Shown: positions 26,692 through 56,193, counted from the stretch's first letter. The stretch: DNA of 64,000 nt from an uncultured Acidobacteriota bacterium (GCA_963828465.1 CAWHEU010000025.1:1-64000); one strand, 5' to 3'. Made by a program: numbers and translations. Notes: generated from the letters alone by a model not told the origin.

Positions 26692-27909
26692 GTGACCACG
26701 AGTCACGTCGACATCGACACCACACAGGACCGAGCCACCCAGCCCCTGGTGGCATCGGTCCGGGATCTCAAGGTCTATTTCCAGGCCAAGGCGGGGGTGG
26801 TGCACGCCGTGGATGGCGTCTCCTTCGACATACGCGATGGCGAGACCCTCGGGCTGGTCGGCGAGACCGGCTGTGGCAAGAGTGTGACCGCTCGCTCCTT
26901 CATCCGTCTCGTGCCGAGCCCTCCCGGGATCTACGCAGGCGGTGAGATCGATTTCTGGTCGACCGAGGCACGCAAGAACGGCATGGGTCCGATCGACCTC
27001 CTCCAGATTCCCCATGACGAGATGCTCGAGATCCGCGGAGATCGGATCGCGATGATCTTCCAGGACCCGGGCAAGGCGCTCAACCCGGCCCTCTCGATAC
27101 GGAGCCAGGTCGCAGAGGTCTTCTACCAGCACCGTTCCGAGGACATCCTCGAGCCCTTGGGTGGTGAGAACGCGCCCCTTCTCATCCGCCGCGCCGCCCG
27201 TCAGCAGTCGAACAGCTTCGAGCGATTCCTGCTCAAGCTCCCTCCGTGGCGGGCCAAGACAGAAAAGTTGAGAGAGCGAGTCAACGTGTTCGTCGCCGAC
27301 GCCCTCAAAGAGACCCAGATCCCCAATCCACGGGCGATCATGGACAACTATCCCCACGAGCTGTCGGGCGGGATGAAACAGCGAGTGCTCATCGCCCAGG
27401 CCCTGGCCTGCAATCCCGACCTGCTGATCGCCGACGAGCCCACGACAGCGCTGGATGTGACCATTCAGGCGAGGATCCTCGAGCTGATCGCCGAGTTGCA
27501 GCAGCGTCTCGAGACGTCGGTGCTCTATATCAGCCACGACCTCTCGCTGGTCAAGGAGATCTGCGATCGCGTGGCCGTCATGTATGCCGGGCGGATAGTC
27601 GAGACAGGGACAACCGAGGAGGTGTTCAGCGATCCCAAGCACCCCTACACGAGAGGTCTCATGGCCGCCGTCCCATCCGCCCTCCACAAGAGGGGCGAGC
27701 TCGCAGCGATCGAGGGAACGGTCCCTGAACTGGTCGACCCGCCCCCGGCATGCCGGTTCAATACCCGCTGCCCCTTCGCCGTCGAGATATGCCGAACCAC
27801 CGACCCGGGGCTGGTGATGGTGGGGGCGGAGCACACGGTTGCATGCTTCGCCTACGACACGAGTGATGGCTCCGTCGTCTTACCCACGCTGACCCGGTGG
27901 GTCTCATGA
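26692..27909 (+). CDS. Dipeptide/oligopeptide ABC ATPase (DppD/OppD-like)
   Basis: [35 protein letters not shown]-terminal CRFNTRC...C...C. Confidence 0.92.
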
Positions 27910-29348
27910 CATCCGTGACTGCCGAACAAGGAGGACAGCCGCCGGCGGCAGCCCAACGGGCGGTCATATCGGTGCGCGGGGTCGAGAAGTACTTCCCGAT
28001 CAAGGAAGGCACCCTGCAGAGGGTGGTGGGCAATGTGCGGGCGGTCGACGGTGTCTCCTTCGAGGTTCGTCCCGGCGAGACCATGGGTCTCGTCGGTGAG
28101 TCGGGATGTGGCAAGACCACGCTCGGCCGCTGCATCAGCGGCCTGGCGCCGCCGACCGGAGGCAAGATCTATTTCAGGCTCCCCGACGAGGACGCCGCCA
28201 CGCTCGACTTGATCGACCCCATCCCGGAGGCCGATCGCACTGTGCAGCAACGCAAGCAGGTAGAGCGGATCGACGCGAATCACCGCGTGGACGTGATGTC
28301 GGGAAAGGCATGGCGGACGTATCGGCGCAACTGCCAGATCGTCTTCCAGGATTCCTTCAGCTCGCTCAACCCGAGACAGCTGGTCAAGGACCTCGTGGGC
28401 CGGCCCCTCCAAGTCCACAAGGAGGCATCCGGCCAGGAGCTCATCGAGCGTGTCGTGTCCCTGCTGGAGAGCGTCGGTCTCGGTCGCCAGCACCTCTACC
28501 GCTACCCCCATCAATTCTCCGGGGGTCAGCGACAACGGATCTCTATCGCTCGAGCCCTCGCCCTCGACCCCGAGTTCATCGTCCTCGACGAGCCGACGAG
28601 CGCTCTCGATGTCTCGGTGCAGGCCCAGATCCTCAACCTACTTCACGAACTGCAGAAGGATCGTGGTCTTACTTACCTGTTCATCAGTCACGACCTCGGC
28701 GTCGTGAGGCTGATGAGCGATCGGATCGCCGTCATGTACCTGGGCAAGGTCGCTGAATACGGCACTGCCAGCGAGCTCTTCGAAGACCCCCGTCACCCGT
28801 ACACCGACGCTCTCCTCGCCGCCAACCCCGACATCCGCGCAGAGGTCTCCGTGATGAAGGGCCTCAAGGGTGCGGTACCCAATCCGGCCAACCCGCCGGA
28901 AGGCTGTCGCTTCCATACCCGGTGCCCGGTGGCTACCCCGGCCTGTGGGTGGGAGGTCGACGACGCAGTGGCGTGGCTCCAGGCCCGTGAGTTACTGGCA
29001 GCGGGTCTCGCCGACGTGCGGCGCCGATCGAACTTCGACGCCACATTGGTTTTCCACGACGAGGAGTCGGCGTCCGCGGTGGTTAGGGCAATTCAAGATG
29101 GTGATATGCCGCCGGCCATGAAGGCGGCGCTCGAGACAGTGACCACCGATGGCAGCAGCCTGGACATCAGGTTCTTCCCGGTGGAACCAGTCGAGCTCGA
29201 GGATGTCGGTGACGGACATCTGACCGCCTGCCTGCTCCACACCGAGCGACGCCATCAGACCTGGCCCCCTCAGTCGAGCGCCGATAACAGCAGCCGAACG
29301 GCAGCGAACCCCAGCAGCGCGAGCACGAGAAACTCGAGTACCCGCTGA
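27906..29348 (+). CDS. Dipeptide/oligopeptide ABC ATPase (DppF/OppF-like) with insertions
   Basis: [36 protein letters not shown]. Confidence 0.9.
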
Positions 29349-30010
29349 TTCAGCCGGCGCCCGATGCGAATGCCGATCGCCGTCATGACGGTCACGGGGA
29401 CGATGGCCCACAACGCCTGAACGGTTCGCTCCGGGGTGAAGGCTCCGAGGATCACCAGGGTCACCAACTGGATCACTCCGAAGACCTGGAAGGTGAGGCT
29501 CATCATGTGGATGAACGACGGGCGGCCGAGACGGATGGCGTGCATGTAGGTCGCGATGAGAGGTCCTGCAGTCCCGGTGGCACCGAGGAGTCCTCCTCCC
29601 ACCAGGCCCATGGGGGCGGCCATCCGGCGAGCGGTCTCCCGCTCCAGCACGAAATGGGGGTCCGCCAGGTGGCGCCAGATGTATCCCAGGATCACAACGG
29701 CGATGATCGCCGAGAGGATCCGATCGTCCACCTCAGTGAGGAGCCAGGTCCCCGCGATGGTCGCCGGGATACCGACGATCAGGAACGGCGTCATTACGAA
29801 CCCTGTGCCGCGGCCGCCGGCGCGGTGCTCCCATAGCAACCAGCCGTTGGACACCAGGTTCCCCAGGGACAGGACCACCACAGCCAGTTCCACACTGGCG
29901 ATTCCGGCGATGAAGGGCACCGCCAGAAGCGGCCCGCCGATGCCGGTCACGCCTTTGATCAAATAGGCCCCCGCGATCACCAGGATCACGAGAACCGCTT
30001 CGGTGGTCAC
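29270..30010 (-). CDS. TauE/SafE (TSUP) family membrane protein
   Basis: IKGVTGIGG and LLGATGTAGP repeats; multiple hydrophobic helices. Confidence 0.85.
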   Translation of the reverse strand: MTTEAVLVILVIAGAYLIKGVTGIGGPLLAVPFIAGIASVELAVVVLSLGNLVSNGWLLWEHRAGGRGTGFVMTPFLIVGIPATIAGTWLLTEVDDRILSAIIAVVILGYIWRHLADPHFVLERETARRMAAPMGLVGGGLLGATGTAGPLIATYMHAIRLGRPSFIHMMSLTFQVFGVIQLVTLVILGAFTPERTVQALWAIVPVTVMTAIGIRIGRRLNQRVLEFLVLALLGFAAVRLLLSALD

Positions 30011-30075: not shown

Positions 30076-30564
30076 CTACCCCAGCGCCTTCGTGAGGTCC
30101 GGCGGGTTGGCTCCGATCGCCCGCAGGAGCCCGAGCTCGTCCCCGAAGTACCAGGCCTCGGCGATGACGCCATCTTCGACACGCCACAGGCCGACCTCGA
30201 CCACGTCTATGTGTTCACCGGTGGCCGGGATCCCATACAGCGATCCGGTGTGGGTCCCGACCACGCGAAATATCCCCCAAACCTTGTCGTTCTTGGCCGT
30301 GAGGTCGAGGAGAACGTTCTCACGGTCCCTCATCGACTCGTCGTCCATGCCCTTGGGACCCTCGCTCTCCCAGAGATCGCCGATGTGGGTGAAGCCGGCG
30401 CGGTGGCGCTTGAAGCCAGGAGCCAGGAAAGGGCCACGCTCCGATACCTTCGCCACCCGGTAGGCGGCCACTACCGCAAGGGCCTTCGCCTCCTCCTCTG
30501 TGCAAGTGCACTCGCTGGAGCCGAATATCGAGATGTGCGGATGTTCCACGAGGGCCACGATCAC
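30076..30564 (-). CDS. SnoaL-like / ester cyclase family protein
   Basis: GTHTGSLYGIPATG...WRVEDGVIAEAWYFGDELGLLRAIG. Confidence 0.8.
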   Translation of the reverse strand: MIVALVEHPHISIFGSSECTCTEEEAKALAVVAAYRVAKVSERGPFLAPGFKRHRAGFTHIGDLWESEGPKGMDDESMRDRENVLLDLTAKNDKVWGIFRVVGTHTGSLYGIPATGEHIDVVEVGLWRVEDGVIAEAWYFGDELGLLRAIGANPPDLTKALG

Positions 30565-31613
30565 AGCTCCACGATGGGTCGGACCGCCTCACGAGACTCG
30601 AGTGCGGCGAGGGCATCACCTACGGATTCGAGCGGATACACATGTGTGACCAGCGGGCTCAAGTCCACCTTGCCCGAGCGCATGAGAGCGATCATCGCCG
30701 GATACGCGTTTGGGCTGGATCGAATCCCCATGAGGTCTACCTCGTCGAGAGTGAGACGATCGACATCGATCTCGGACGGCTTGCCGCCGGTGAGTCCGAG
30801 CAGAGCGATCCTGCCGCCGCGGCGAACTGCGCCAATGGCCTGAGCAGGCACGTCCGGGTTTCCCGTGCAGTCGAAGACGTAATCGACCCCGCGCCCTCCG
30901 GTGAGACGACGCACTCCGGCGGCCGGGTCCTCCTTCTCGTAATCCACTACGTCGTCACAGCCCATCTTGGCGGCAAGGTCGAGTCTGCTACCCCGCCCGA
31001 CCATGATCAGTTGCGCAGCCCCTGAGGCCGACGCCACAGCCGCGGTGAGAAGGCCGAGGAGACCTGGTCCGAAGACCGCCACACTCGACCCGGGCAGGAA
31101 TTCGACCCTTCGCAGGGCATGCACCGTGAGCGACCCTTGATTCACCAGCGCCCCCTCCAGAGGACTGACCGAGTCGGGCAGCTTGTGCAGCATCTGGGCA
31201 GGTCTGACGGCGAATTCGGCCAACGCACCCGGGGCGGTGTGTCCATACAGGCGATACCCCGGAGTACCCGATTTCTCGCATAGGTTGTACCTCCCCTGAC
31301 GGCACATGGGACACCGACCACAACCGACGTGGTTCTCGGCCACCACCTTGTCGCCAGGCTGCAGCTCCAGATCGTCGAGACCCTCGCCGAGGGCAACCAC
31401 CTCCCCCGACCACTCATGGCCCATGACGAAGGGCAATGACGGGGGCCAGCCACGCTTCTCGAAGGCACCGTGGACCATCTTCAGGTCGGTGCCGCACAGA
31501 CCGCATGCCCTCACCCTGAGCAGGACCTCGCCCGCTTCCGGTTCGGGGACATCGACGTCCTCCACCGAGAGGTCGTTCCATCCCTTCAACACTGCGGCCC
31601 GCATGGTGGTCAC
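30561..31613 (-). CDS. Zn-dependent medium-chain alcohol dehydrogenase (sorbitol/threonine DH-like)
   Basis: GLCGTD, GHEWSG, CGRCPMC...C structural Zn site, GPGLLG. Confidence 0.9.
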   Translation of the reverse strand: MTTMRAAVLKGWNDLSVEDVDVPEPEAGEVLLRVRACGLCGTDLKMVHGAFEKRGWPPSLPFVMGHEWSGEVVALGEGLDDLELQPGDKVVAENHVGCGRCPMCRQGRYNLCEKSGTPGYRLYGHTAPGALAEFAVRPAQMLHKLPDSVSPLEGALVNQGSLTVHALRRVEFLPGSSVAVFGPGLLGLLTAAVASASGAAQLIMVGRGSRLDLAAKMGCDDVVDYEKEDPAAGVRRLTGGRGVDYVFDCTGNPDVPAQAIGAVRRGGRIALLGLTGGKPSEIDVDRLTLDEVDLMGIRSSPNAYPAMIALMRSGKVDLSPLVTHVYPLESVGDALAALESREAVRPIVEL

Positions 31614-32392
31614 GAACTTCCTCCGGCTTCGGGGGCCCGCTCCGCCAGGCTCTTCCACACCTCATCCACCTCACTCACGATGTGCTCGGCCACCGCGTCG
31701 ATGATCTCTCCAGCACGCTCCTCGGTGATCGAGTCGGGTGTTCCATACCAGCCCTCGGCCGCCACCTCCCTGAAATCCTTCATGATGGGAAACACGTCGC
31801 GACGCCGGAAGAGCGCGTGTCCATCTGTGGCCCGGTCGATCGCAGCACCGTCCACCTCCCCGCCCAGCCTCACCAGCGCGGGATCGTGAGCCAGGATCGC
31901 CGCCGTCTCCATCGACCCGGCATGGGTGAACTCCATCTCGTCGGGGAACAGCGCGTTGGTGATCACATGCGACTCGGCGACGATCACACGCAAGGGAAGC
32001 TTCTGCTGGGCCCGGTCGGCGCCCAGTCGGATCGCGGTGGAGTTGCCCTCGTGCCAGTTGACGATGAGAACCCTCACCACGCCGGCATTGGCCAACCCCT
32101 CGCAGACCTCCACCAGGAGCGTCGCCAAAGTATCAGGACTTATGCTCAAGGATCCCGGCCAGGGAAGGTGATAGGACGCCACGCCCACCGGGGAGATGGG
32201 CACTACCGGAGCCTCGAGTCGCTCACCGACGCGGAGGGCGATGGTGAGGGCGGCAAAGGCATCCGTGCCCAGGGGGAGATGACCCCCGTGCTGCTCGATG
32301 CTGCCCGTCACCAGCACGGCCGTCCCCCGACCCAAGGCGTCCTGTGCTTCGGGTTGGGTCATATTGGCGAGAAGCATGTGCTCGCGGCTCAC
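31610..32392 (-). CDS. Creatininase family amidohydrolase
   Basis: GSIEQHGGHLPLGTD, NWHEGN, HAGSMET. Confidence 0.88.
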   Translation of the reverse strand: MSREHMLLANMTQPEAQDALGRGTAVLVTGSIEQHGGHLPLGTDAFAALTIALRVGERLEAPVVPISPVGVASYHLPWPGSLSISPDTLATLLVEVCEGLANAGVVRVLIVNWHEGNSTAIRLGADRAQQKLPLRVIVAESHVITNALFPDEMEFTHAGSMETAAILAHDPALVRLGGEVDGAAIDRATDGHALFRRRDVFPIMKDFREVAAEGWYGTPDSITEERAGEIIDAVAEHIVSEVDEVWKSLAERAPEAGGSS

Positions 32393-32428: not shown

Positions 32429-32440
32429 ACAAACGGTTGT
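32429..32440. promoter_or_regulatory. LacI-type operator, class B (ACAAACGGTTGT)
   Basis: In the short gap between the LacI stop and the creatininase start. Confidence 0.65.
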
Positions 32441-32470: not shown

Positions 32471-33520
32471 TCAGGTCGGGGCAGGCGCCGTCGAGCCCCG
32501 AACCACCAGCTCCGGCGCCGCAAGGTGGGTCTCGGCGGGCCGGCCTGGATCCGCGATTGTCTCCAGCAAGAGATTCGCCGCCATCGAGCCCAGGTTGTTC
32601 TGGGAGATGTGGACTGTCGTGAGCGGTGGTGAGAACCGGTCGCCGTACGGCATGTCGTTGAAGCCGACCACCGAGACGTCTTCTGGACACGATCGCCCGA
32701 CTTCCCGGATGGCATCGATCGCACCCAACGCGAGCCGGTCGTTGGCGGCGAGCACAGCAGTGGTGTCGGGACGCTCCTCGAGCAGGTCACTCGTCACCCG
32801 GTAACCCTCCTCCTCGGTGTGACGGTTGGCAAAGCCGTGACTCCCGCTCAGACCCGCTTCCTGGAGCGTCTCTTCGAACGTCCCGAGCCGATTGACGGTG
32901 GACGAGACGTCTTCCGGTCCTCCGACGTGCACGATGTTGCGATGGCCAAGCGAGAACAGGTGCTCCACCGCCAGACGGGTCCCGGTGCGGTCATCGGGGA
33001 GCACGGCGCTGATCTCGCGGCCTTCGGCCCCACGATTGAAGAGCACCACCGGGATTCCTTCGTCGACGAGCCAAGCCAGAACGGCGTCGTCTTCCCTGGC
33101 CACCCCGTACAGAAGGCCATCTGCCTGAACTCCGAGCATGGCAGACACTTGAGACTCGGCGTGCTTCGGGTCGTCGTCGGTGCTGGCGAGTATCAGCGAG
33201 TACCCGTGGGCATAGAGGACGTCGCCGGCACCGCGGGTGATACCCGCCTGATAGAGATTGGCCACGTCGGGAACGACCATCCCGACCACGAGAGTTCGTC
33301 CGGTGCGTAGGGCGCGGGCGATGGTGTTGCGGCGATAACCGAGTTTTCGGGCCACCGCGCGGATTCGCTCGTCGGTGTCCTGGGTGATCCGCCCTGCGGC
33401 GGCCTGGTCGTTGAGGACGCGGGAAACGGTGGACACATGCACGCCGGCCTCGCGGGCGACGTCACGCAACGTCGGCGGCTTGCCCGCTCGCGTCTCGCCA
33501 TTTCCACCAGGAGTACTCAC
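32471..33520 (-). CDS. LacI family transcriptional regulator (regulon B)
   Basis: PTLRDVAREAGVHVSTVSRVLN, NTIARAL, VSVVGFND, PPLTTV; start probably GTG 33520. Confidence 0.93.
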   Translation of the reverse strand: MSTPGGNGETRAGKPPTLRDVAREAGVHVSTVSRVLNDQAAAGRITQDTDERIRAVARKLGYRRNTIARALRTGRTLVVGMVVPDVANLYQAGITRGAGDVLYAHGYSLILASTDDDPKHAESQVSAMLGVQADGLLYGVAREDDAVLAWLVDEGIPVVLFNRGAEGREISAVLPDDRTGTRLAVEHLFSLGHRNIVHVGGPEDVSSTVNRLGTFEETLQEAGLSGSHGFANRHTEEEGYRVTSDLLEERPDTTAVLAANDRLALGAIDAIREVGRSCPEDVSVVGFNDMPYGDRFSPPLTTVHISQNNLGSMAANLLLETIADPGRPAETHLAAPELVVRGSTAPAPT

Positions 33521-33569
33521 AGGGCGAGGGTACCCAAACCCCTCAGGCCGACTGATGGCACCGCATTTC

Positions 33570-34772
33570 TTACGCCTGAGCGCCACCCGTATCCGGAAGA
33601 AACCTCCAGGAGAACAAGGCCGCAGCTACCAGGACGCCCGCCACGAACAGAAAAGCCACGACTCTGCCGAATCCGGCGAACAGGCCCGTGACTACCAGCG
33701 GTCCGGTGATCAAGCCGAGATCCCCGACGAATCGAAAACGGCCCAAATGCGATCCGACTCGAGCCGGGTCGGTGATATCCCCCAGGATCGTGGCCGCAAC
33801 AGGGACCGCGAAGCTGGCCAGCGACATGACGACGATGGCAGCGATCCAAAGGGCAACAGTGGGCTGAAGCGTGAGAAGCGCGACACCGAAGGCTTGGATG
33901 AACAGACCCGGCACGAGCACGGACTTTCTCGAGAGTCGATCGGACAACCGGCCACCCACGAGCGTCCCCGCGAACCGCGCCAGCCCCCCTACGCCCAGGG
34001 CGAGCCCAATGGCTGCAGTGCCCAGGCCGAGGTCGTCGGCTCCGATGATCGGCACCATCGTCTGAGAGACAGAGCCCAGAGTGAGGAAGACGGCGAAAGA
34101 CACGCTCTGCAGGACCAGGAGCGGCAGGAAGGATCGGCCCCCTGGGTCAGCAAGACCGCGATCGCCCGCCCGGGCGGCCGACGCCGGAGGGGGCCGGTTC
34201 GACCGGGCCGTCAACAAGACGAGAACCACGATCCCGGCGGCTCCGGCGCCTACGAACATCGCAACCCGCCAGCCACCGATGGATGCGATCAAACCGGCCG
34301 TCGCCGGCCCGATGGCCTGCCCGCCCAGCAAGGCAGCCGAGAAGATCGCCATGGACGTGCCTCGATGACTGTCGCCGGACACAGTCGAGAAGAAGGTCAT
34401 CCCCGTGGCGTTGGTAGTGGCCGAGCAGATCCCGAGCAGGAAAGAGGCAACGTAGACCACGAGTGCCACCCAGGAGAGCCCGAGGAGCAGGCTGCCCAGA
34501 GCCACGCCTCCCGCTGACAGTGCCATGAGGTTGATAGCCCTCACCCTGTCAGCGAAATGGCCGCCCGGCAGGTCGGCCACGAGTCTGCCCAAGGCGAACA
34601 CGGTCGTCACGAGCCCCAACTGAAAGGTCGACATCGACAGCTCACGGCCGAACTCGGGCAAAAGGGCGACCCGGAAGAAGGCGACTGCAGTGAGGGTGAG
34701 AACGGCCGCTGAAACGAGGCTCGGCTCCCGCAGCCCGGTCGTGGCGCGCAGACGACGGATGTAATCTCGCAT
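33570..34772 (-). CDS. MFS transporter
   Basis: Motif A-like GHFADRVR and GRLSDRLSRK; about 12 hydrophobic segments. The 678-aa ORF has a spurious N-terminal extension. Confidence 0.85.
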   Translation of the reverse strand: MRDYIRRLRATTGLREPSLVSAAVLTLTAVAFFRVALLPEFGRELSMSTFQLGLVTTVFALGRLVADLPGGHFADRVRAINLMALSAGGVALGSLLLGLSWVALVVYVASFLLGICSATTNATGMTFFSTVSGDSHRGTSMAIFSAALLGGQAIGPATAGLIASIGGWRVAMFVGAGAAGIVVLVLLTARSNRPPPASAARAGDRGLADPGGRSFLPLLVLQSVSFAVFLTLGSVSQTMVPIIGADDLGLGTAAIGLALGVGGLARFAGTLVGGRLSDRLSRKSVLVPGLFIQAFGVALLTLQPTVALWIAAIVVMSLASFAVPVAATILGDITDPARVGSHLGRFRFVGDLGLITGPLVVTGLFAGFGRVVAFLFVAGVLVAAALFSWRFLPDTGGAQA

Positions 34773-34790: not shown

Positions 34791-34802
34791 ACAAACGTTT
34801 GT
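34791..34802. promoter_or_regulatory. LacI-type operator, class B (ACAAACGTTTGT)
   Basis: Perfect palindrome in the MFS/LVIVD divergent gap. Confidence 0.7.
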
Positions 34803-45297: not shown

Positions 45298-45345
45298 ACA
45301 AACGTATGCGCTGCTAGCGTCGGGTCATCTGGTGCAATCCATTGC
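45298..45345. promoter_or_regulatory. Two class B operator-like sites (ACAAACGTATGC at 45298; GCAATCCATTGC at 45334)
   Basis: Both lie in the 112-bp divergent gap between the two DapA-like genes. Confidence 0.6.
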
Positions 45346-48778: not shown

Positions 48779-49833
48779 CGGAGGGCCCCCGCTTGCTCCA
48801 CCATCGGCGCCACCGGCACAGCCTCGCCGTTTCGCTTCGACGACTCGAGAGCGGCATGGACCACGGCGAGGGCTCTGATCGCTTCGAGGGCACCCACCTC
48901 GATCTCCGCCTCCCCTCTGATGGCGAGAGCGAACTCGTCTAACTGCTCCCGGAACATGTCGGTGTGAGGCATGTCGACGGGAGGTCGGGTCGACTCCCGG
49001 TATGCCTGGCTGACGAGAGTGCTCTTCGAGTCCACGAAATGGGACTCATCCCAGTTGTTGAAGTCGAGGTCGTAGAAGAGGTTGGCCTCCGTGCCCTGCA
49101 GGCGCAGCTGATAGACCCCTGGCGAGGCCCAGCCGGTGCCCAGATACCCGAGAGGGCCGGACTCGAACTCCAGAATCGACATGATCGCGTCCGGCACCTC
49201 CGACTTGGTGTACAGCTTGCGCGCATGGCTCGACACTGAAGCGACCGGGCCGAGGAGATACTGGAGATTGTCGGCGTGGTGGACACCGAGCTGGATCATC
49301 GCCCCGCCTGGGCTCTTGTCGGCGTACCAGCGCCAGGTGTCGGTGGTCAGCTCCAGGCCGCGCTCGTTCGAGAAGTTGGCCTCTGCGAGCGACACCTGGC
49401 CGATCTTGCCGGTCTCTATCCACTGCTTCATGGCCCGGTGCCCCCCGAGTCGTCGGGCACTGTGACCGACTGCGAAAGCTTTGCCGGATGCGGCCGCCGC
49501 TCTGGCTATCTCACCGGCGTCCTCCATCGTGTGGGCTATCGGCTTGTCGGTGTAGACGGCCTTGCCCGCATCGAGACTCTCGAGGATGACGCTCTTGTGC
49601 GTGTCATTCGGGGTGGTGACCAGCACTCCCTCGATCTCGGGGTCGGAGAGCAACTCGTCGAGGGAGGATGCCGCCCGGAGAACGCCGAACTCCTCCTGAA
49701 ACGCTGTGCGACTCTCGGGTGAGCGTGAGAAGCAGCTCGCCAGCTCGATCACCGTGCCTCGTTGTGCCCCCCTGGCGAGCACCCTGGCCCAGCGGCCCAG
49801 CCCTATGGAGGCGAGTTTGACCCGCTCACTCAT
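48775..49833 (-). CDS. Gfo/Idh/MocA family oxidoreductase
   Basis: SIGLGRWA, VTTPNDTH, YTDKPIA, MIQLGVHHAD. Confidence 0.88.
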   Translation of the reverse strand: MSERVKLASIGLGRWARVLARGAQRGTVIELASCFSRSPESRTAFQEEFGVLRAASSLDELLSDPEIEGVLVTTPNDTHKSVILESLDAGKAVYTDKPIAHTMEDAGEIARAAAASGKAFAVGHSARRLGGHRAMKQWIETGKIGQVSLAEANFSNERGLELTTDTWRWYADKSPGGAMIQLGVHHADNLQYLLGPVASVSSHARKLYTKSEVPDAIMSILEFESGPLGYLGTGWASPGVYQLRLQGTEANLFYDLDFNNWDESHFVDSKSTLVSQAYRESTRPPVDMPHTDMFREQLDEFALAIRGEAEIEVGALEAIRALAVVHAALESSKRNGEAVPVAPMVEQAGALR

Positions 49834-50215
49834 CGGTCCCCTCCTCGTCGGTCTCGAGGAGAAGGTCGAGCTCCTCGATGTTGTTGGCGAAATCGTCGTG
49901 GGGGAAGAAACACACGAGGGACATCCGCTCGTCTGGATCGGCCATGGTTGCGTGCGGCGTCCCTGCGGGAATGCGGTACCAGGTCCCCGGGCCCACGGGG
50001 TGCACCACACCGTCCAGCCAGACCCGGCCGCGACCCGCTACCACGTACACGATCTCCTCGCTCTGCGGGTGGAGATGCGGTGATCTGGTGGGAACGTGCT
50101 CGATGACGACCTGGCGCACGGTCGAAGCACCCTGGCCCGCGGTCTTGAACGGGTCGGCGGTGGACCTACCGGGAAAGTCGCGAAAATCGAGCTGGCCCGG
50201 GCCGACAACGGTCAC
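49826..50215 (-). CDS. Cupin domain protein
   Basis: PHLHPQSEEIVYVVAGRG...IPAGTPH. Confidence 0.88.
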   Translation of the reverse strand: MTVVGPGQLDFRDFPGRSTADPFKTAGQGASTVRQVVIEHVPTRSPHLHPQSEEIVYVVAGRGRVWLDGVVHPVGPGTWYRIPAGTPHATMADPDERMSLVCFFPHDDFANNIEELDLLLETDEEGTDE

Positions 50216-50979
50216 GACCCGCGTCTCCGCAGCTTCAGGATGGACTCCACCGCGGTAGCGATCTCGTCGGCCACGGTGGCGGCGAACTGCCCGGCGCGCT
50301 CTTGGTCCGCCCAGGCCGGGTTCCCATACCAGCCGTCGTCAGCGATCTCGGTCACGTCTGTGATGTAGCCGTATACCTCTCGGGAGCGACGCATTGCGTC
50401 CAATTCATCGGCGCCTTCCGGCCGGGTCGGCTCCGTCACCCGACCCGAATGGAACAGGTCCGGATCGTGGGCAAGCACCGCCAGGGTCTCGATTCCGCCA
50501 CCATGGGTGAGCTCTCCCCCTGCGGGGGCGTAGATGCGCTGCGCCGTGTAACAGGCGTGCGCGGTGACGAACAGGACATCCTCGCGGTCCTGGACGTCGG
50601 TGGCCACGGCATCGAGCGAGGCGATGTTTCCCTCGTGCCAGTTGACGAAGACGAAGGTCCTCGCCCCCATCGCCACCAACTCCTCGCACAGGTTGGCCAG
50701 GTACGCCTCGAAGACATCCCGGCGTATCGAGATCGTGCCGGGATGCCCGGCGTGGATCGGAGTGACGCCGTAGGGGCCGGCGGACACGATGATGCCATCG
50801 AGGCGCTCGGCGAGCTCCTCGGCAACGAGCTCGGCAGCCATGGTGTCGGTGCCACAGGGCAGGTGCGGCCCATGCTGCTCGACACTCCCGAATGGCATCA
50901 CCACCATGCCCTTGCGACCAATCAACTCGGCCACGTCCGGTGAAGCGAGGTCGTTGATCGATCTGCTCGACATGCTCAA
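50212..50979 (-). CDS. Creatininase family amidohydrolase
   Basis: GSVEQHGPHLPCGTD, NWHEGN, HGGGIET. Confidence 0.88.
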   Translation of the reverse strand: MSMSSRSINDLASPDVAELIGRKGMVVMPFGSVEQHGPHLPCGTDTMAAELVAEELAERLDGIIVSAGPYGVTPIHAGHPGTISIRRDVFEAYLANLCEELVAMGARTFVFVNWHEGNIASLDAVATDVQDREDVLFVTAHACYTAQRIYAPAGGELTHGGGIETLAVLAHDPDLFHSGRVTEPTRPEGADELDAMRRSREVYGYITDVTEIADDGWYGNPAWADQERAGQFAATVADEIATAVESILKLRRRGS

Positions 50980-51968
50980 CCGATCTCCGCTGCTTCCGGA
51001 GTCACCACAGCGTGCAACGGCGGCTCCGAGTCGAGTATCCGGCGGGCTTCCGCCGCAGCCTGGCGTCGGAGAGCGAGCTCGCTCTCCTCGGTGTACCAGG
51101 ACATATGTGGCGTAAGTATCACCCGTTCCGCGACAGGCTCGAAGACGGAAACATCGGGTGGCTCGTGCTCGAATACGTCCAGTGCGGCAAAGCCAGGCCG
51201 GTTGTCTCTGAGCGCCGAGACCAGAGCTCCCGTGTCGATGAGCGATCCACGGGCAGTGTTCACGAGAACCGAGCCCTCCCTCATGGACCGCAGCTCGGCG
51301 GCGCCGAGCAGGTACCCCCGGGCCGGAGGGGGGGAATGAAGTGTGACCACATCGGAGCCGGCGAGCAGTTCGTCCACGCCTGCGAGACGACCCGGGGCAC
51401 CGCCGAGCGCCGTGGTCACGTCTGATGCCTCGACCGCCGGGTCAGAGACGAGGACGGCCTCGAAACCGAGGCCCGCGAGAAGCAGCGCGACCCGTCGCCC
51501 GATTCTTCCGAATCCGATGACACCCGCCGTCAGACTCGACGGAAGGCGGAGCGGCCGCAGATCGGCGACGCCCCAGGACCCCTCCCTCAGCTTCCGGTCG
51601 GCGGTGGTCAGACGGCGAAGCGAGGCTAGAACCAAAGTGGTGGCATGGAGGGCGACGGCGTCCATGCCGTAGTCGGGCACGTTGACCACCCACATCCCCA
51701 ACGACCGTGCCCGGTCGAGGTCGACGCCGTCTACCCCGACCCCGAGACGGACGATGGCCCGGCTTTCCAGCTTCTCGAGGGTCCCGGCATCGAATCGCGG
51801 TGCGGCTCCGGCCAGGATCACATCCGCGCCGGCGGCGACCGCGATGACGTCTTCGGCCGATTGCCCCGGGCCGGAGACCAGCTCGACGTCACCGAGAACT
51901 CCACGTTCGACGTCGAAATCGCCGAACCGCGTTCCGAGAATCGCCACCTTGGGCCGACGTGAATCCAC
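50976..51968 (-). CDS. D-isomer-specific 2-hydroxyacid dehydrogenase (SerA/CtBP-like)
   Basis: GVGVDGVD, NVPDY, GFGRIG, VNTARG, LDVFEHEP, LTPHMSW. Confidence 0.9.
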   Translation of the reverse strand: MDSRRPKVAILGTRFGDFDVERGVLGDVELVSGPGQSAEDVIAVAAGADVILAGAAPRFDAGTLEKLESRAIVRLGVGVDGVDLDRARSLGMWVVNVPDYGMDAVALHATTLVLASLRRLTTADRKLREGSWGVADLRPLRLPSSLTAGVIGFGRIGRRVALLLAGLGFEAVLVSDPAVEASDVTTALGGAPGRLAGVDELLAGSDVVTLHSPPPARGYLLGAAELRSMREGSVLVNTARGSLIDTGALVSALRDNRPGFAALDVFEHEPPDVSVFEPVAERVILTPHMSWYTEESELALRRQAAAEARRILDSEPPLHAVVTPEAAEIG

Positions 51969-51994
51969 CGGCCGGGGAGTATAGGGTCCGTCGC

Positions 51995-52006
51995 GCAATC
52001 GATTGC
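51995..52006. promoter_or_regulatory. LacI-type operator, class B (GCAATCGATTGC)
   Basis: Perfect palindrome in the divergent gap; identical to the 26566 site. Confidence 0.7.
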
Positions 52007-52035
52007 CAGCCGTCTTACGGCTATAAAAGGGGGGC

Positions 52036-54309
52036 GTGGACGACATCCCCCATTTCGAGCCGCTCTCTCATCTTCGTCTGGAGGACCATCGGCTGGTCAC
52101 AGGCTCGGGACGCTTTGTCGCCGACCTGGCGCCCCCGGAGACGGTCCATCTCGCCTTCGTTCGCAGCACCGAGGCCCACGCCCGCATCACCGGCATCGAC
52201 ACGCATTCGGTCGATTCCCCCGATGTGGTGGGGATGTTCACCGCAGCCGACCTCGACCTGGCGGACATCCCGGGTGACAGCACGGCCGTCCCTGCGCCCG
52301 ACTTCCCCCGTCCCCACCTCGCGTCGGAGAAGGTGCGATATGTAGGCGAGCCATTGGCGGTGGTCGCTGCCAACACAGCGGCAGCGGCAGCCGACGCCGC
52401 CGACTTGATATGGGTCGACTACGAGATCCTCCCTGCGGTCGTCGATCCCGCGGCGAGCCTCGAGGACGAAATCATTCTGCACGAGGCTGCGGGGACCAAT
52501 GTGGTGAGTCGTTCGGACCTGGCTGCAGGTGAGCCGAAAGAGAGCTACGAGGTGGTAGCCGAGATCGACGTGACCAATCAGCGGCTGGCGCCGAACTCGA
52601 TCGAACCGCTCGTCATCCTCGCTGTGCCCGAAGACGAGGGCCGCCTCACGGTGTACGTGAGCCACCAACGACCACACGGTGTGAAGGCCCGTCTATGCCA
52701 GCTGCTCCCGTATGACCCGGACAAGCTGCGAGTCGTAGTCCCCGACGTCGGCGGAGCCTTCGGGATGAAGGGAATGACCTATCCCGAGCACACGGTGACA
52801 GTGGCTGTGGCCCTCCGGCTCGAGCGGCCTGTCATCTGGGTCGAGCGACGTCGCGAGCATCTGAGCGGCGGAACCCACGGGCGGGGCTCGGTGCACAAGG
52901 TCAGGCTCTCGGGGACATCGGCCGGCCGCGTCCAACGAGCGGAGATCGACGTCCTCGCCGACGTCGGCGCCTACCCACACAACGGGGCCACGATCCCCGT
53001 TTTCTCGCGGTTGGTCGCCTTCGGCCTGTATGACATCGAGAGTGCGGCGCTGACGACCACCTCCGTCGTCACCAATACGGCTCCCACGGGCTCGTATCGC
53101 GGTGCGGGGCGTCCCGAAGCCGCCTATGCCATCGAGAGGGCGATCGATGCCTTCGCCCATGCCGCCGGTCTCGACCCGGTCGAGGTCCGTCTGACCAACT
53201 TCATCCCGTCCGAATCTCTCCCCTACCGCACCGCCACCGGCGCCCTCTATGACTCGGGTGACTATGCGGCGGCGTTGCGCCGTGCTGTCGACCTCGTCGG
53301 GCTCGACGAGCTACGGGAAGAACAGAAGGCGCGCCTGGCAGACGGGCGCGACCCGATCGGCATCGGGTTCGGTGCCTTCGTCGAGCGGGCCGGTGGAGCG
53401 GTCGACGCCGGCGAATACGGACGGGTCGAGGTCGACCAGGACGGAAGGGTCACCGTGCGCACCGGATCGGCTTCCTCCGGTCAGGGCCACGAGACGGCGT
53501 GGGCACAAGTGGCGGCGGCGGCCTTGGGTCTCAACCCGGACGCCGTTACATACATCGCCGGTGACACCGACCAGGTGGCCCGGGGCGCCGGGACCTTCGC
53601 CAGCAGATCGGCTCAGATAGGAGCGGCGGCCATCTGGCGCACGGCTCAGGTTGTGCGACAACGGGCTATCGATCTGACGGCCGAGCTCCTCGAGGCGTCG
53701 CCGGCCGACGTGGTGCTCTCCGATGGCACGTTTTCCATCGCCGGCGTGCCCGGCACCGAGATGGGGTGGGCCGAGGTCGCGGCCGCGGCACATAGCCGCG
53801 GGATCGACCTGAGCGAAGAGGAGTGGTTCGTCCCCGGCGCTCAGACATTCCCGTACGGGGTCCATGTCGCCGTCGTGGAGGTCGCGCTCGAGACCGGCGA
53901 AGTCAGGCTCGATCGCCTCGTCACCGTCGACGACTGCGGAAACGTGCTCAATCCGATGATCGTGGAAGGCCAGCTCCACGGCTCCCTCATTCAGGGGGTC
54001 GGCCAGGCTTTGTACGAAGGGGTCCAGTATTCGGATCAGGGCCAGCTTCTCACCTCGACTCTCATGGACTACGCCTTACCCCGGGCCAGCGACGCGCCCC
54101 CGATCACAGCCGAGCGGTTGGTCCACCCGGCGCCATCGAATCCCCTAGGCGTCAAGGGCACCGGTGAGGCCGGCTGCATCGGGGCACCCCCTGCGATCGT
54201 CAACGCCGTCCTGGACGCTCTCGCTCCGTATGGCGTCACCGATCTTCAGATGCCGCTCCGACCGGCAACGGTGTGGGCCGCCCTCTCGGCATCTACTGTC
54301 CGGCCATAA
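52036..54309 (+). CDS. Xanthine dehydrogenase-family molybdopterin-binding large subunit (CoxL/CutL-like, not form I CODH)
   Basis: RLEDHRLVTGSG, DVGGAFGMK, SYRGAGRPEA, GQGHET, GQLHG, GVKGTGEAG. Confidence 0.92.
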   Translation: MDDIPHFEPLSHLRLEDHRLVTGSGRFVADLAPPETVHLAFVRSTEAHARITGIDTHSVDSPDVVGMFTAADLDLADIPGDSTAVPAPDFPRPHLASEKVRYVGEPLAVVAANTAAAAADAADLIWVDYEILPAVVDPAASLEDEIILHEAAGTNVVSRSDLAAGEPKESYEVVAEIDVTNQRLAPNSIEPLVILAVPEDEGRLTVYVSHQRPHGVKARLCQLLPYDPDKLRVVVPDVGGAFGMKGMTYPEHTVTVAVALRLERPVIWVERRREHLSGGTHGRGSVHKVRLSGTSAGRVQRAEIDVLADVGAYPHNGATIPVFSRLVAFGLYDIESAALTTTSVVTNTAPTGSYRGAGRPEAAYAIERAIDAFAHAAGLDPVEVRLTNFIPSESLPYRTATGALYDSGDYAAALRRAVDLVGLDELREEQKARLADGRDPIGIGFGAFVERAGGAVDAGEYGRVEVDQDGRVTVRTGSASSGQGHETAWAQVAAAALGLNPDAVTYIAGDTDQVARGAGTFASRSAQIGAAAIWRTAQVVRQRAIDLTAELLEASPADVVLSDGTFSIAGVPGTEMGWAEVAAAAHSRGIDLSEEEWFVPGAQTFPYGVHVAVVEVALETGEVRLDRLVTVDDCGNVLNPMIVEGQLHGSLIQGVGQALYEGVQYSDQGQLLTSTLMDYALPRASDAPPITAERLVHPAPSNPLGVKGTGEAGCIGAPPAIVNAVLDALAPYGVTDLQMPLRPATVWAALSASTVRP

Positions 54310-54316: not shown

Positions 54317-54335
54317 GCAAACCGAAAGGGCGATC

Positions 54336-55248
54336 ATGGGAATCGATCCAGAGCATGTGACCATCGTCGAGGAGGTTCCCGGCTCAGACATTCCGGTCGA
54401 GCTCGAGATATGTCGAGACCTGGGACGGGCTCTACGCCCCGATCGGACTGCGACTCCCACCGGGACCGGGACCCCATCCCCTCGTGCTGCTCGCCTCCGG
54501 CAATGGAGGAGGGGGCATGGCCTGGATCAGGGACGCCGTCGCCAACCGGGGCTACATCATGGACCGATTGCTGGAGCAGGGCTACGCGTGCGCCTGGATC
54601 CGTTATCGCACCGAGGTGGAGCTCGGCTACGAGAACGGTGGACATCTCGTGCGGGACACACGGCAGGGCCGCGACATGTTCAACCGATCCCCCCTCGAGT
54701 ATGAAGACGAGATCGCCATCGTCGAGCAGCTCAAGCAAGACCCGCGCATCGACCCTGACCGCGTTGGGCTCATTGGGATGAGTCACGGTGGGGAGATGGT
54801 CCTCAAGATCGCCTCTGAGTATCAGGGCCTCGCGGCAGCGGTCGCCTCCGAGCCCGCCTCGCATGAGTTCCTCTCCTTGAGCCCGGACAACACTGCCTTT
54901 GTCGACCCGGAGACCGGTCTCCGCAACATCGAGGAGATGCAGATGGTCGAGACCGAGAAGGTGCGATCACGTATCGACATGGCGAAGGCGACGGAGCGGA
55001 TCGCCACGATCGACACACCGATCCTCGTCATGGGCCGGGAAGATGATCACCTCCAGGGGATATTCCGCACCAGCTACGACCTTCTGGCGGAGGCAGGCAA
55101 GCCTGTCGAGTGGGTCAGCTGGGACCACGATCTCCACGGATACGTCTATCCGCAGCGCGGGCCTGACGGCGAATATGAGGTCAATGAGGTCCAGGAGGAA
55201 GCGATCGCCGGTGTCCTCTCCTACCTCGGCCGGCACCTAAAGGGGTAA
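54336..55248 (+). CDS. Alpha/beta hydrolase (dienelactone hydrolase/S9-like); frameshift near 54408
   Basis: RVGLIGMSHGG nucleophile motif, GREDD, DLHGY; N-terminus MGIDPEH lies in another frame. Confidence 0.78.
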
Positions 55249-55257
55249 GAACGCCGG

Positions 55258-56193
55258 TCAGGTCAAACCGTCAGAGACGTCCTTGTTCTCGGGCTCGAGG
55301 GTGACATTGGTGCCTTCGGCCTGTCGGGACAACATGGACGCGAAGTCCTGGCCGCCGAAGCCACGTCCCACTCCATCCATGACGATCTGATGGACCAGGG
55401 CGGCCGTCGGAAGAGGGACATCGAGGAGGCGACCCGCCTCGAGACCGAGCTCGAAGTCCTTGCGAAGCAACTCCCAGGTGAACGTCGGCGTGTAGTCGAG
55501 ATTCACGAAGGCCGGTGTCTTGTAGCGGGTGAAAGTCGACCCCATCACGCTGTCGTTGAGGAAGTCGAGGAAGTCGGCGCGGGAAACGCCTGCCGCCTCG
55601 GCCAGGACAGTGATCTCGGCCATCGACTGCGTCACGACACCAAGCATGAGGTTATGGCAGATCTTGACCAGCCGGGCCTCGTCGCCCTCTCCTACGTATG
55701 TGACCTTTCGCCCGAACAGCTCGAGGTACGGGAGCGCGGTCTCGAACGCCTTCATCGGGCCGGACACCACAGAGGTGAGCCGTCCGGCTTTGACGACTTT
55801 TGGATTGCCAGAAACTGGTGCCGCCAGCACCGCAGTGCCCAGCTCTCCGGCCCGTTCGGTGAGCGTCTCGGAAGTGGGGCCGTCGATCGTGGTCGAATCG
55901 ACGATTATCTGCGGGCGACTGTTCGGCTGTGAGAGAACTCCTTCATCACCGATCGTCACCTCGAGCACATCCTCCGGCCCCGCCACCATCGTGAATACGA
56001 TGTCGCGCTCGGCTAGCTCGGCGGGCGAGTCGACGATCTTTGCCCCCTTGTCGGCCAATGGCTCAGCCTTGGCCCGGGTTCGGTTGTAGACCCACAGGTC
56101 CACGTTGGAGGCGAGAAGCCGTGCGACCAGGGCGGCACCCATCCGACCGGTGCCTATCCAGCCCACCCGGTGCGGATATTTGTCGTCAGCCAT
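55258..56193 (-). CDS. NAD(P)-dependent beta-hydroxyacid dehydrogenase (3-hydroxyisobutyrate/6PGDH family)
   Basis: GWIGTGRMG, YNRT, APVSGN, catalytic KICHN, LRKDFELG. Confidence 0.9.
   Translation of the reverse strand: MADDKYPHRVGWIGTGRMGAALVARLLASNVDLWVYNRTRAKAEPLADKGAKIVDSPAELAERDIVFTMVAGPEDVLEVTIGDEGVLSQPNSRPQIIVDSTTIDGPTSETLTERAGELGTAVLAAPVSGNPKVVKAGRLTSVVSGPMKAFETALPYLELFGRKVTYVGEGDEARLVKICHNLMLGVVTQSMAEITVLAEAAGVSRADFLDFLNDSVMGSTFTRYKTPAFVNLDYTPTFTWELLRKDFELGLEAGRLLDVPLPTAALVHQIVMDGVGRGFGGQDFASMLSRQAEGTNVTLEPENKDVSDGLT

Follow-up and report, generated by a model that had tools for sequence, protein, structure and literature searches.

The window analysed here is a stretch of 64,000 nucleotides (contig C25:1-64000; 64% GC) from the metagenome-assembled genome (MAG) G000, which comprises 3.07 Mb in 29 contigs and is 92% complete with 4.8% contamination. 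It contains a LacI-type catabolic regulon with an undescribed enzyme set. By comparing operators and gene content, we showed that positions 26.56-56.3 kb constitute one predicted regulon of a LacI-family repressor, that this regulon is conserved, with four genes as its core and some 18 families that recur, and that it is old and modular in Actinomycetota. Genes were called with a filter on third-position GC content (GC3), and the proteins were scanned with Pfam and NCBIfam. The 27 genes of the island (g01-g27, Table 1) lie within 26671-56298; the strand alternates between transcription units, of which there are nine or more. The original prediction, made from the letters of the window alone, had proposed an undescribed catabolic pathway here, and the scans found every family of its list in its place. 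None of the 27 proteins reached the curated NCBIfam cut-off of a characterised catabolic enzyme, the genes recur together elsewhere, and they do not map at high identity to one known pathway, which supports its claim that the set matches no described pathway. Its interpretation as a whole is partly supported: O2-independence, hydroxylation of a ring by water and the substrates that it named (amino acid-sugar/cyclitol conjugates, hydroxypyridines or polyhydroxybenzenes) are speculative and gained no support here. No description of this gene set was found in the full-text literature searched; the supplementary tables of PMC12421959 could list related families.

The LacI-type operator and its regulon

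The candidate regulator g07 carries a LacI helix-turn-helix (HTH) domain at residues 39-87 together with Peripla_BP_3/1/4 domains (Pfam). Palindrome searches of the intergenic regions first found GCAATCGATTGC (in two places) and ACAAACGTTTGT. The LacI-type palindrome TGCAAWCGWTTGCA precedes nearly every transcription unit, the exception being the own side of the M24a gene (g15), a lone gene. With up to two mismatches allowed, GCAATCGATTGC matched the window nine times, whereas shuffled sequence gave 2.68 matches on average and none of 100 shuffles reached nine; the intergenic copies among these matches lie at g01, g14/g15, g17/g18, g24/g25 and g27. Genome-wide (3.07 Mb), the core CAAWCGWTTG occurred at 14 sites, where a first-order Markov model predicts 6.2, and five exact cores fell within the island (0.06 expected; P(>=5) = 6e-9). 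Two of the 14 sites belong to a second copy of the island's left part on contig C20, and two lie upstream of a paralogous operon on contig C2 that encodes a solute-binding protein (SBP), permeases, ATPases and an M24 protein. One more precedes a C2 operon of a CocE/NonD hydrolase, a CrtI-like flavoprotein and an FrsA-like hydrolase, and another lies between an S9 peptidase gene and an operon for the E1 component of a 2-oxoacid dehydrogenase.

The operator is also retained in other genomes. Across ten syntenic stretches from relatives we found 41 sites, present in all ten and standing at orthologous promoters. The core module bears an operator at its 5' end in 31 of 36 far loci and 33 of 43 nearer ones (defined below). 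In three distant genomes the sites are clustered: seven of eight within 30 kb in G132, all ten within 53 kb in G047, and 14 of 19 in two stretches in G107, against 0-1 sites for a reversed-pattern control. The system resembles the local catabolic regulons of the LacI family (RbsR, PurR and CcpA-type operators) in that its repressor combines an HTH with a periplasmic-binding-protein fold, and in that the promoters of transporter, enzyme and regulator genes contain a palindrome of 14 bp centred on CG. In contrast to these, it is unusually large, with 27 genes here and 30-50 kb in distant genomes, and its content is mostly amidohydrolase-type and other hydrolases, not glycosidases, kinases and isomerases.

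Conservation in relatives and distant Actinomycetota

Ten relatives were compared, with the LVIVD gene (g09) as first anchor. Gene order is preserved across all 30 kb in G012 and G006, and in G003 as far as its contig end at g22. In G015 and G019 the ornithine cyclodeaminase family gene (OCD) and DHDPSa are absent from the syntenic stretch, and G030, a member of another family, keeps most genes. Four more families of the order (G034, G031, G035, G028) keep the LVIVD gene and a canonical SBP-permB-permC-OppD-OppF operon, along with subsets of Amidohydro_2, the operon of the 2-hydroxyacid dehydrogenase (2HacidDH), Creat2, cupin and Gfo genes, the Mo large subunit (MoCoL), HIBADH and hydrolases, in shuffled order.

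As a second, independent anchor we used Creat2 (g23), with one genome per species. This gave 79 loci, of which 36 at <68% identity are called far; they include the cultured Nocardioides caldifontis YIM 730233 (L103) and MAGs labelled Jiangellaceae, Nitriliruptorales and Mycobacteriaceae. Among the 36, Creat2 is adjoined by Gfo in 35, the cupin in 34 and 2HacidDH in 32. These results showed that the invariant core consists of a 2HacidDH, a creatininase-fold hydrolase, a cupin and a Gfo/Idh/MocA dehydrogenase. Creat2 (E <= 1e-60) was present in 21 of 40 relatives, all 21 belonging to the 30 with an LVIVD match and none to the ten without, and in 6 of 400 other genomes sampled evenly from Actinomycetota; the tallies of LVIVD and Creat2 in the 40 and of Creat2 in the 400 take in the unpublished genomes G018, G027, G038 and G276, which contributed to these tallies but supplied no sequence.

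Since flanks of 10 kb hide a 30-kb system, we ran the operator search in the three distant Creat2-bearing genomes (G132, G047 and G107), where it located islands of 30-50 kb. The apparent genus-specificity of the M24, HIBADH, MoCoL, TauE and ThrC-like genes, taken from the 10-kb flanks, was overturned by this whole-island analysis. Homologues at 36-66% identity in the distant islands cover LacI, SnoaL, Creat1, the Zn-dependent alcohol dehydrogenase (Zn-ADH), M24a, M24b, FrsA-like, 2HacidDH, Creat2, Gfo, cupin, Amidohydro_2, LVIVD, ThrC-like, MoCoL, HIBADH, TauE and MFS proteins. Extra genes there encode an E1/E2 2-oxoacid dehydrogenase, an aldehyde dehydrogenase, RidA, FAH and GD_AH, as well as NitT/TauT-type and branched-chain-type ABC systems. 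The recurring partners include the Zn-ADH/creatininase pair, LVIVD with the ACMSD-like Amidohydro_2, and interchangeable importers. Among the relatives, the 79 Creat2 loci and the three distant islands, OCD, DHDPSa, DHDPSb (g18) and the DLH hydrolase were found in close kin only. The common operator and this co-occurrence across genera, families and distant Actinomycetota bear out the claim that the genes belong together.

The same data bear on whether the island could instead be a mosaic, in which several small pathways (for a sugar or cyclitol, an amino-acid derivative, and an aldehyde or acid) would stand under look-alike operators of paralogous LacIs, with no single 27-gene pathway. The many transcription units on alternating strands would suit a mosaic, as would the several LacI paralogues per distant island with importers of four types, the confinement of OCD and both DHDPS-like genes to close kin with module order shuffled between families, and the further sugar-type operons, other LacI and similar weak sites at 2-22 kb of the window. 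However, only one LacI lies in this island, the operators are near-identical, and the same ~18 families occur together in lineages as distant as different families of the phylum; and since just 6 of the 400 other Actinomycetota sampled carry the core, chance is unlikely to have put this set together more than once. We consider a mosaic unlikely.

The Opp/Dpp-type importer is complete, with a family-5 SBP (g14), two permeases (g13 and g12) and two ATPases with an oligo_HPY tail (g01 and g02), but its operon is split by g03-g11; the canonical order is seen in the C2 paralogue and in G034, G031, G035 and G028. The arrangement at 26671-38175 relative to 38182-41919 is the expected outcome of an inversion of 26.6-38.2 kb, and the split OppD/OppF pair has its own operator-bearing promoter. 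g14 has a lipoprotein signal; its PDB sequence matches are generic peptide, nickel and opine binders. In other lineages the regulon is paired with MFS, NitT/TauT-type and branched-chain-type ABC importers, so the paradox of a sugar-type regulator beside a peptide-type importer is weakened.

Several further arrangements were observed. In L034, a public MAG contig, the block HIBADH-DLH-MoCoL-2HacidDH-Creat2-cupin occurs twice in tandem, which may be a duplication or an assembly artefact. A CocE/NonD hydrolase, a CrtI-like flavoprotein and a second FrsA-like hydrolase cluster with Creat2 in 18-19 of 37 near and 3-4 of 6 mid loci, and in G000 this trio stands behind its own operator on another contig (C2:127002-131600). 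The congeners G015 and G019 have ~3.5 kb of unmatched DNA and a second FrsA-like hydrolase between g20 and g19. An Amadoriase was considered for the amine-oxidase-like flavoprotein of the regulon and rejected, as the protein scores as a CrtI/CrtO family member, not as a fructosyl-amine oxidase.

Enzymes and candidate substrates

The enzyme scores were compared with the curated NCBIfam cut-offs (in bits). The top matches were IolM (NF041097) for g05 (212.4 against 450) and IolG (TIGR04380) for g21 (110.7 against 355), and both creatininases matched IolN (NF041098; g06 43.5 and g23 56.9 against 245). Creat1 and Creat2 scored higher against creatininase (TIGR04448; 89.2 and 81 against 235) and MftE than against IolN. 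M24a and M24b reached 42.8 and 50.1 against 613 for DoeA (TIGR02993), OCD 119.4 against 471.65 for EutC (TIGR02992), and dapA gave 93 against 206. The remaining scores were 581 against 790 for glyceraldehyde dehydrogenase alpha (g25), 144 against 341 for tartronate semialdehyde reductase and 112 against 594 for GsiB. The sole island protein above an NCBIfam cut-off was the ThrC-like fragment, with PRK08197.

Creat2 has 2491 relatives, and the names among the 120 listed were 'creatininase family' or 'creatinine amidohydrolase' only. Its top plasmid match (42%) lies on the Haloarcula ordinaria plasmid NZ_CP119790.1 (152990-155295; L116) with an M24 gene adjoining, and the core operon was not found at this locus; the M24-creatininase pairing thus also occurs outside Actinomycetota, in a haloarchaeon. 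Both M24 proteins of the island carry Creatinase_N, and they are atypical, as had been predicted: aligned to prolidase 1pv9, whose metal ligands we take to be D209, D220, H284, E313 and E327, M24a lacks four of the five canonical ligands and M24b three.

These data bear on a known pathway under generic names, namely creatinine/creatine, ectoine (DoeA/EutBCD) or hydroxyproline catabolism. Such a route would accommodate the co-occurrence of creatininase-family and Creatinase_N/M24 proteins, here and as neighbours on the Haloarcula plasmid, and the M24, OCD and pyridoxal-phosphate (PLP) enzymes, which mirror DoeA, EutC and EutB; the DHDPS and OCD families serve hydroxyproline catabolism. Yet the scores for creatininase, DoeA, EutC and dapA are all far under the cut-offs, the Pfam scan found no sarcosine oxidase, DoeB/C/D or hydroxyproline epimerase family among the island genes, and the conserved dehydrogenase/cupin operon is foreign to all three routes. 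This explanation is hardly credible.

The LVIVD protein g09 has no signal peptide and belongs to an LVIVD family with many invariant His, Glu and Asp residues. Its predicted structure (mean predicted local distance difference test score, pLDDT, 89.4) matched 5hrm best (E 9e-16; template-modelling score, TM, 0.72; next fold E 1.6e-8); 5hrm was also its only PDB sequence match, and Atlas gave LVIVD labels only. This fold is that of Sb-PTE, a beta-propeller phosphotriesterase with a binuclear metal site from Sphingobium sp. TCM1, which is the best match by seven orders of magnitude; however, the identity is 18-19%, g09 is ~100 residues longer, and the likeness comes from a predicted structure. 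The modelled fold predicts that the propeller is a metallohydrolase. In one genome (L099), LVIVD and Amidohydro_2 lie in one open frame of 815 aa. A selenoprotein lead, from LVIVD paralogues with an inner TGA in six relatives, was rejected: the TGA lies at the C-terminal end (g09 position 378) in all six and is a stop codon.

The partner of the propeller, g10, aligns end to end with ACMSD (human E 7.8e-57, bacterial E 1e-43), keeps the N-terminal HxH motif and had no NCBIfam match at E <= 1e-5. It resembles the ACMSD/nonoxidative decarboxylase branch of Amidohydro_2 over its whole length, but it has no kynurenine-pathway neighbours here. The cupin g22 has a 3-His/1-Glu metal motif, and its closest solved sequences are quercetin 2,3-dioxygenases (E 1.6e-8), followed by KdgF and oxalate decarboxylase. 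The claim that no ring-cleaving oxygenase is present holds by family name, but this cupin qualifies it. The Mo large subunit g25 contains a PF01315 hammerhead and PF02738 and PF20256 MoCo-binding domains, and its best NCBIfam score is with an aldehyde-type enzyme. No 2Fe-2S or FAD subunit lies beside it; Fer2_2 occurs in G000 only at C22, C18, C1 and C20:237868, and the matches on C22, C18 and C1 adjoin other large-subunit paralogues. The MoCoL homologue is partnered by FAD and 2Fe-2S subunits in G047 and by an FAD subunit in G132.

These three enzymes bear on a route for an N-heteroaromatic or hydroxylated aromatic acid (picolinate-, nicotinate- or dipicolinate-like), in which Mo hydroxylation, ACMSD-type decarboxylation and cupin ring cleavage would be joined by deformylase or amidase steps of creatininase-fold, M24 and alpha/beta hydrolases. 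The strong ACMSD-likeness of g10, the full metal motif of the cupin, the conservation of the Mo subunit in the regulon with its partners in G047 and G132, the DLH- and FrsA-type hydrolases and a Rieske/VanA-type oxygenase in the G107 island are consistent with it. On the other side, the Mo enzyme and the decarboxylase are both missing from the invariant core, the Mo subunit is an orphan here and scores best as an aldehyde-type enzyme, and the Pfam scan of the window detected no marker such as a monooxygenase or a maleate isomerase. Moreover, it is usually sugar-like compounds that LacI regulators and Gfo/Idh/MocA enzymes serve. We regard an aromatic substrate as improbable.

We tentatively favour an oxidative-hydrolytic route for a polar, sugar- or cyclitol-like organic anion; the chemistry is deduced from the families, and the scheme may well be correct, though we would stop short of calling it probable. 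The anion would be imported by the split Opp/Dpp-type ABC system and the MFS transporter and oxidised by the NAD-dependent Gfo and Zn-ADH enzymes to a lactone or to an intermediate with one or two keto groups. Its hydrolytic opening, as in the IolG/IolM/IolN route, would fall to the metal hydrolases of the creatininase-fold and LVIVD-propeller types, and the cupin and the ACMSD-like enzyme would then isomerise or decarboxylate the product. C3/C2 products may be handled by the DHDPS-type lyase, the Mo aldehyde oxidoreductase and the dehydrogenases of the HIBADH and 2-hydroxyacid types, and TauE may export an anionic end product; OCD and the DHDPS-like genes would be a genus-level add-on.

The matches to IolM, IolG and IolN argue for this scheme, as do the intact metal and catalytic motifs of Creat2, the likeness of the LVIVD model to a binuclear-metal propeller hydrolase and the single open frame of LVIVD and Amidohydro_2 in L099. 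In the inositol route of Thermotoga maritima (IolG, IolM, IolN, IolO), reportedly described by Rodionova et al. in 2013, hydrolysis opens a C-C bond after two dehydrogenations. The island shares with that route a co-regulated trio of Gfo/Idh/MocA enzyme, Zn-ADH and creatininase-fold protein under sugar-type regulation, and the GD_AH dehydratases found in 13 of 36 far loci could fill the altronate-dehydratase role, but the scores are below every Iol cut-off and the phylum is different. A cupin and a 2-hydroxyacid dehydrogenase stand here in place of the IolO epimerase, and extra hydrolases, ACMSD-like, PLP and Mo enzymes and TauE are present. The GD_AH genes fit the altronate step downstream of the Thermotoga route, as given in PMC12632266.

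Several points weigh against the sugar- or cyclitol-like anion. The Iol scores are far under the curated cut-offs, and the creatininases are closer to creatininase and MftE than to IolN. Pfam detected no IolO-type xylose-isomerase-like epimerase among g01-g27 (an AP_endonuc_2 protein lies outside the island, at 3430-4344) and no GD_AH (PF04295, 0 matches) in the 92%-complete G000. We know of no role in known sugar or cyclitol routes for ACMSD-like, LVIVD, ThrC-like and E1/E2 2-oxoacid dehydrogenase proteins, nor for the atypical M24 proteins, of which each regulon has two to five. As for regulation, the binder of TGCAAWCGWTTGCA, most likely g07, is a predicted one, and the presence of 3-4 LacI paralogues per distant island weakens the claim of one regulator for one substrate. 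A genome scan with a position weight matrix (PWM) placed all ten sites scoring >=18 in the island, the C20 copy or the C2 transporter locus, but this matrix is partly circular, as it was built from sites picked by the core pattern; the core counts are independent of it.

A serious alternative, which is compatible with the oxidative-hydrolytic scheme and would name its chemistry, is an organosulfonate substrate, either a sulfosugar such as sulfoquinovose or sulfofucose or a C3 sulfonate such as 2,3-dihydroxypropane-1-sulfonate (DHPS), sulfolactate or cysteate. It would be oxidised, opened and split to sulfolactaldehyde or sulfolactate, and sulfonate or sulfite would leave via TauE. This reading, absent from the original prediction, is suggested by the recurrence of TauE, in the window and in all three distant islands, and by other sulfur-anion genes. 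Of the 36 far loci, 8-11 encode a NitT/TauT-type ABC system whose binding protein is SsuA-like, as do the islands of G047 and G107, and L103 and L091 have YeiH 'sulfate exporter' genes. In G107, a split GD_AH protein of ~385 aa follows a short open reading frame (ORF), as in SuyAB, and operators stand next to the genes for a Mo-bisPGD/FeS/NrfD complex and for a SulP sulfate permease that passes its cut-off (398 against 380 bits). The GD_AH family of the far loci, the glyceraldehyde-type best score of g25, a weak cysteate synthase match of the ThrC-like enzyme (41-80 bits) and a sulfolactaldehyde reductase match of g27 (90 bits) point the same way.

However, no curated cut-off of a sulfonate enzyme was reached (sulfolactaldehyde reductase NF012005, 348, with 108 for the G047 homologue; cysteate synthase, 325; SsuA family, 30-55 against 163), G000 has no GD_AH, the family of SuyAB, and the TauE and SulP families carry non-sulfur anions too. 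The thiamine-pyrophosphate (TPP) enzyme of G107 is acetolactate-synthase-like, with no Xsc among the best 25 of 51 matches, and the Mo enzyme is PhsA/DMSO-reductase-like; both are below cut-offs, and the pair carries no weight for or against sulfur. Creatininases, M24 proteins, the cupin and the ACMSD-like enzyme are foreign to known sulfoglycolysis. The sulfofucose route of Paracoccus wurundjeri, a sulfoglycolytic Entner-Doudoroff route, comprises a dehydrogenase, a lactonase, a dehydratase, an aldolase, sulfolactate dehydrogenases, SuyAB and TauE (PMC12421959). With this route the island shares a dehydrogenase, a ring-opening hydrolase, a lyase, C3 dehydrogenases, TauE and an ABC importer, but it has Gfo instead of a short-chain dehydrogenase/reductase (SDR), no SMP-30/PF09450 lactonase, enolase-type dehydratase or HpcH aldolase, and a SuyAB-like split GD_AH only in distant members of the regulon. 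An organosulfonate is possible, though on the evidence rather unlikely.

The boldest reading would be an unrecognised route whose substrate, abundant in soil, is a sugar, a cyclitol or a conjugate bearing a sulfonate or amino group, such as a new sulfosugar/sulfolactate route or one for a thiol-cyclitol-aminosugar conjugate like mycothiol from necromass. Ring or amide bonds would then be opened by metal hydrolases only (a creatininase-fold C-C/C-N hydrolase, and LVIVD with the ACMSD-like decarboxylase), and the metal-free M24 and ThrC-like proteins would release the N or S moiety. We think this reading unlikely.

Neighbouring DNA, assembly and significance

The positions of the genes and operator sites are collected in Table 1.

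Table 1. Genes and operator sites of the LacI-type regulon in the window (PWM, position weight matrix score; scores in bits against cut-offs)
Feature	Position	Strand	Remarks
Operator GCAATCGATTGC	26566..26577	.	~95 bp upstream of OppD; PWM 21.8; kept in place in G012, G003, G006, G015, G019, G030
g01 OppD-type ABC ATPase	26671..27909	+	Pfam, NCBIfam; parted from its permeases by g03-g11
g02 OppF-type ABC ATPase	27897..29348	+	Pfam, NCBIfam
g03 TauE/SafE-family anion exporter	29270..30010	-	PF01925, 76/32.6; homologues in G132, G047, G107 islands
g04 SnoaL-like protein	30076..30564	-	Pfam; 66% homologue in G107 island
g05 Zn-dependent alcohol dehydrogenase	30561..31658	-	top NCBIfam match IolM; 65% homologue adjoins Creat1 in G107
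g06 creatininase-fold hydrolase 1 (Creat1)	31610..32392	-	creatininase 89/235, MftE 84/172, IolN 43.5/245
Operator variant ACAAACGGTTGT	32429..32440	.	between g06 and g07
g07 LacI-family repressor, candidate regulator	32471..33586	-	LacI homologues 36-58% in far loci and islands
g08 MFS transporter	33570..34760 (start approximate)	-	MFS_1 within C-terminal 380 aa of longer ORF
Operator ACAAACGTTTGT	34791..34802	.	divergent MFS/LVIVD promoter; PWM 20.9; conserved in G012, G003, G006, G015, G019
g09 LVIVD beta-propeller, predicted cytoplasmic metallohydrolase, His-rich	34833..35999	+	Pfam; fold match to 5hrm
g10 Amidohydro_2, ACMSD-like	36025..37032	+	Pfam; human ACMSD E 7.8e-57
g11 ThrC-like PLP enzyme (PRK08197 type)	37029..38175	+	NCBIfam; two 1-nt deletions near 37301, 37450
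g12 ABC permease (DppC/OppC type)	38182..39114	-	Pfam, NCBIfam
g13 ABC permease (DppB/OppB type)	39118..40128	-	Pfam, NCBIfam
g14 family-5 solute-binding lipoprotein	40222..41919	-	Pfam, NCBIfam; lipobox
Operator CCAATCGTTTGC	41971..41982	.	divergent SBP/M24a region; PWM 19.5; conserved in 6 relatives
g15 atypical M24 protein a (M24a)	41939..43258 (true start probably near 42070-42110)	+	59-60% homologues in G047, G107 islands
g16 ornithine cyclodeaminase/mu-crystallin family (OCD)	43268..44254	-	Pfam, NCBIfam; close kin only
g17 divergent DHDPS-like protein (DHDPSa)	44257..45279	-	Pfam E 3.6e-6; no PDB sequence match
Weak operator-like site GCAATCCATTGC	45334..45345	.	between g17 and g18; PWM 14.3; no exact core in relatives
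g18 DHDPS/NAL-family lyase	45392..46375	+	Schiff-base Lys kept; Tyr of YN motif replaced by Phe
g19 atypical M24 protein b (M24b)	46388..47662	+	59% homologue in G107
g20 FrsA-like alpha/beta hydrolase	47678..48778	-	Pfam, NCBIfam
g21 Gfo/Idh/MocA dehydrogenase, core gene	48775..50010	-	in 35/36 far loci
g22 metal-binding monocupin, core gene	49826..50215	-	in 34/36 far loci
g23 creatininase-fold hydrolase 2 (Creat2), core gene	50212..50979	-	creatininase metal and catalytic motifs kept
g24 D-2-hydroxyacid dehydrogenase (2HacidDH), core gene	50976..52046	-	in 32/36 far loci
Operator GCAATCGATTGC, second copy	51995..52006	.	divergent g24/g25 region; PWM 18.3
g25 xanthine-oxidase-family Mo large subunit (MoCoL), orphan here	52036..54309	+	50-57% homologues in G132, G047
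g26 DLH/S9-type alpha/beta hydrolase	54484..55248	+	Pfam
g27 HIBADH-family dehydrogenase, tartronate-semialdehyde-reductase-like	55258..56298	-	54-60% homologues in all three distant islands
Operator GCAATCGTTTGT	56254..56265	.	5' end of g27; PWM 21.2; conserved in G012, G006

The ThrC-like gene is spread over three reading frames by its two single-base deletions, both of which are absent from all five aligned relatives; four of these keep one open frame of ~383 aa, and G006 has an indel of its own. Contigs from public runs have an extra C at 37298 and 37449, and the breaks are therefore either assembly errors or the mark of a very recent pseudogene. The C-terminal piece of 233 aa scored 314.6 bits against the NF006050 cut-off of 303, and the intact G107 homologue scored 535 bits. 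Given its place in a LacI regulon and its frameshifts in this genome, a biosynthetic role of g11 as threonine synthase is doubtful. In G000, the general threonine synthase model TIGR00260 had no match at cut-off, the best being the frameshifted g11 at 60 bits; either a housekeeping thrC is encoded in the 8% of the genome that the assembly lacks or has diverged strongly, or the LacI-linked g11 is the only such gene.

Other observations concern the assembly. At 22163-25582 of the window the genes look truncated or frameshifted, with a DeoC that covers the first half of its model and an exonuclease III that lacks its N-terminal third, and the M24 paralogue on C2 (C2:131588-132739) was matched in three pieces. 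A public DNA run differs from the window by single-base indels at 39115, 40195, 41026/41028, 41962, 43259, 52028 and 54404. These results suggest that the assembly is indel-prone. The best public DNA runs, mostly soil-labelled, shared 0.23-0.42 of sampled words, and three RNA-library runs shared 0.05-0.09; contigs of the latter, with a likeness of 90-99%, reach into 29, 29 and 20 of the 30 bins that span 36400-56300, which is no proof of transcription or operon structure.

The second copy on C20 (C20:3-12767; ~13 kb) is inverted and corresponds to 23099-36542 of the window, from u2 to the middle of the Amidohydro_2 gene, at 86-90% nucleotide and 75-97% protein identity. It carries two operator copies of its own and stops at the contig end inside the Amidohydro_2 gene, and either the segment is truly duplicated or the bin contains a second strain or a chimeric contig. 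To the left of the island, window 2067-22114 holds two Gfo genes with a xylose-isomerase-like TIM barrel, a CUT2-type sugar ABC system, an amidase, a second LacI (12152-13225), an SDR, a CoA-transferase, an enoyl-CoA hydratase, LLM, a shikimate dehydrogenase, an alanine racemase, DUF993 and an aldehyde dehydrogenase; weak operator-like sites lie at 12119 and 13287. Just outside the island on the right, at 60375-61871, a gene for a GMC oxidoreductase (304 bits with MftG against a cut-off of 387) lies downstream of genes for PadR, a permease-prefix protein and a MetE-like protein.

The system, which occurs in soil Acidimicrobiia and other Actinomycetota, has no database name beyond generic family labels. 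It groups under one predicted repressor several families with few or no assigned functions: LVIVD propellers, M24 proteins without a metal site, creatininase-fold proteins other than creatininase, MftE and IolN, and an ACMSD-like enzyme outside tryptophan catabolism. The predicted operator offers a practical handle, and the ligand identity of one repressor or binding protein could assign functions to ~20 families. If the sulfur link is true, the regulon would represent a new branch of soil organosulfonate cycling, and a route for a sulfonated or aminated substrate, if true, would give the first functions for at least four orphan enzyme subfamilies.

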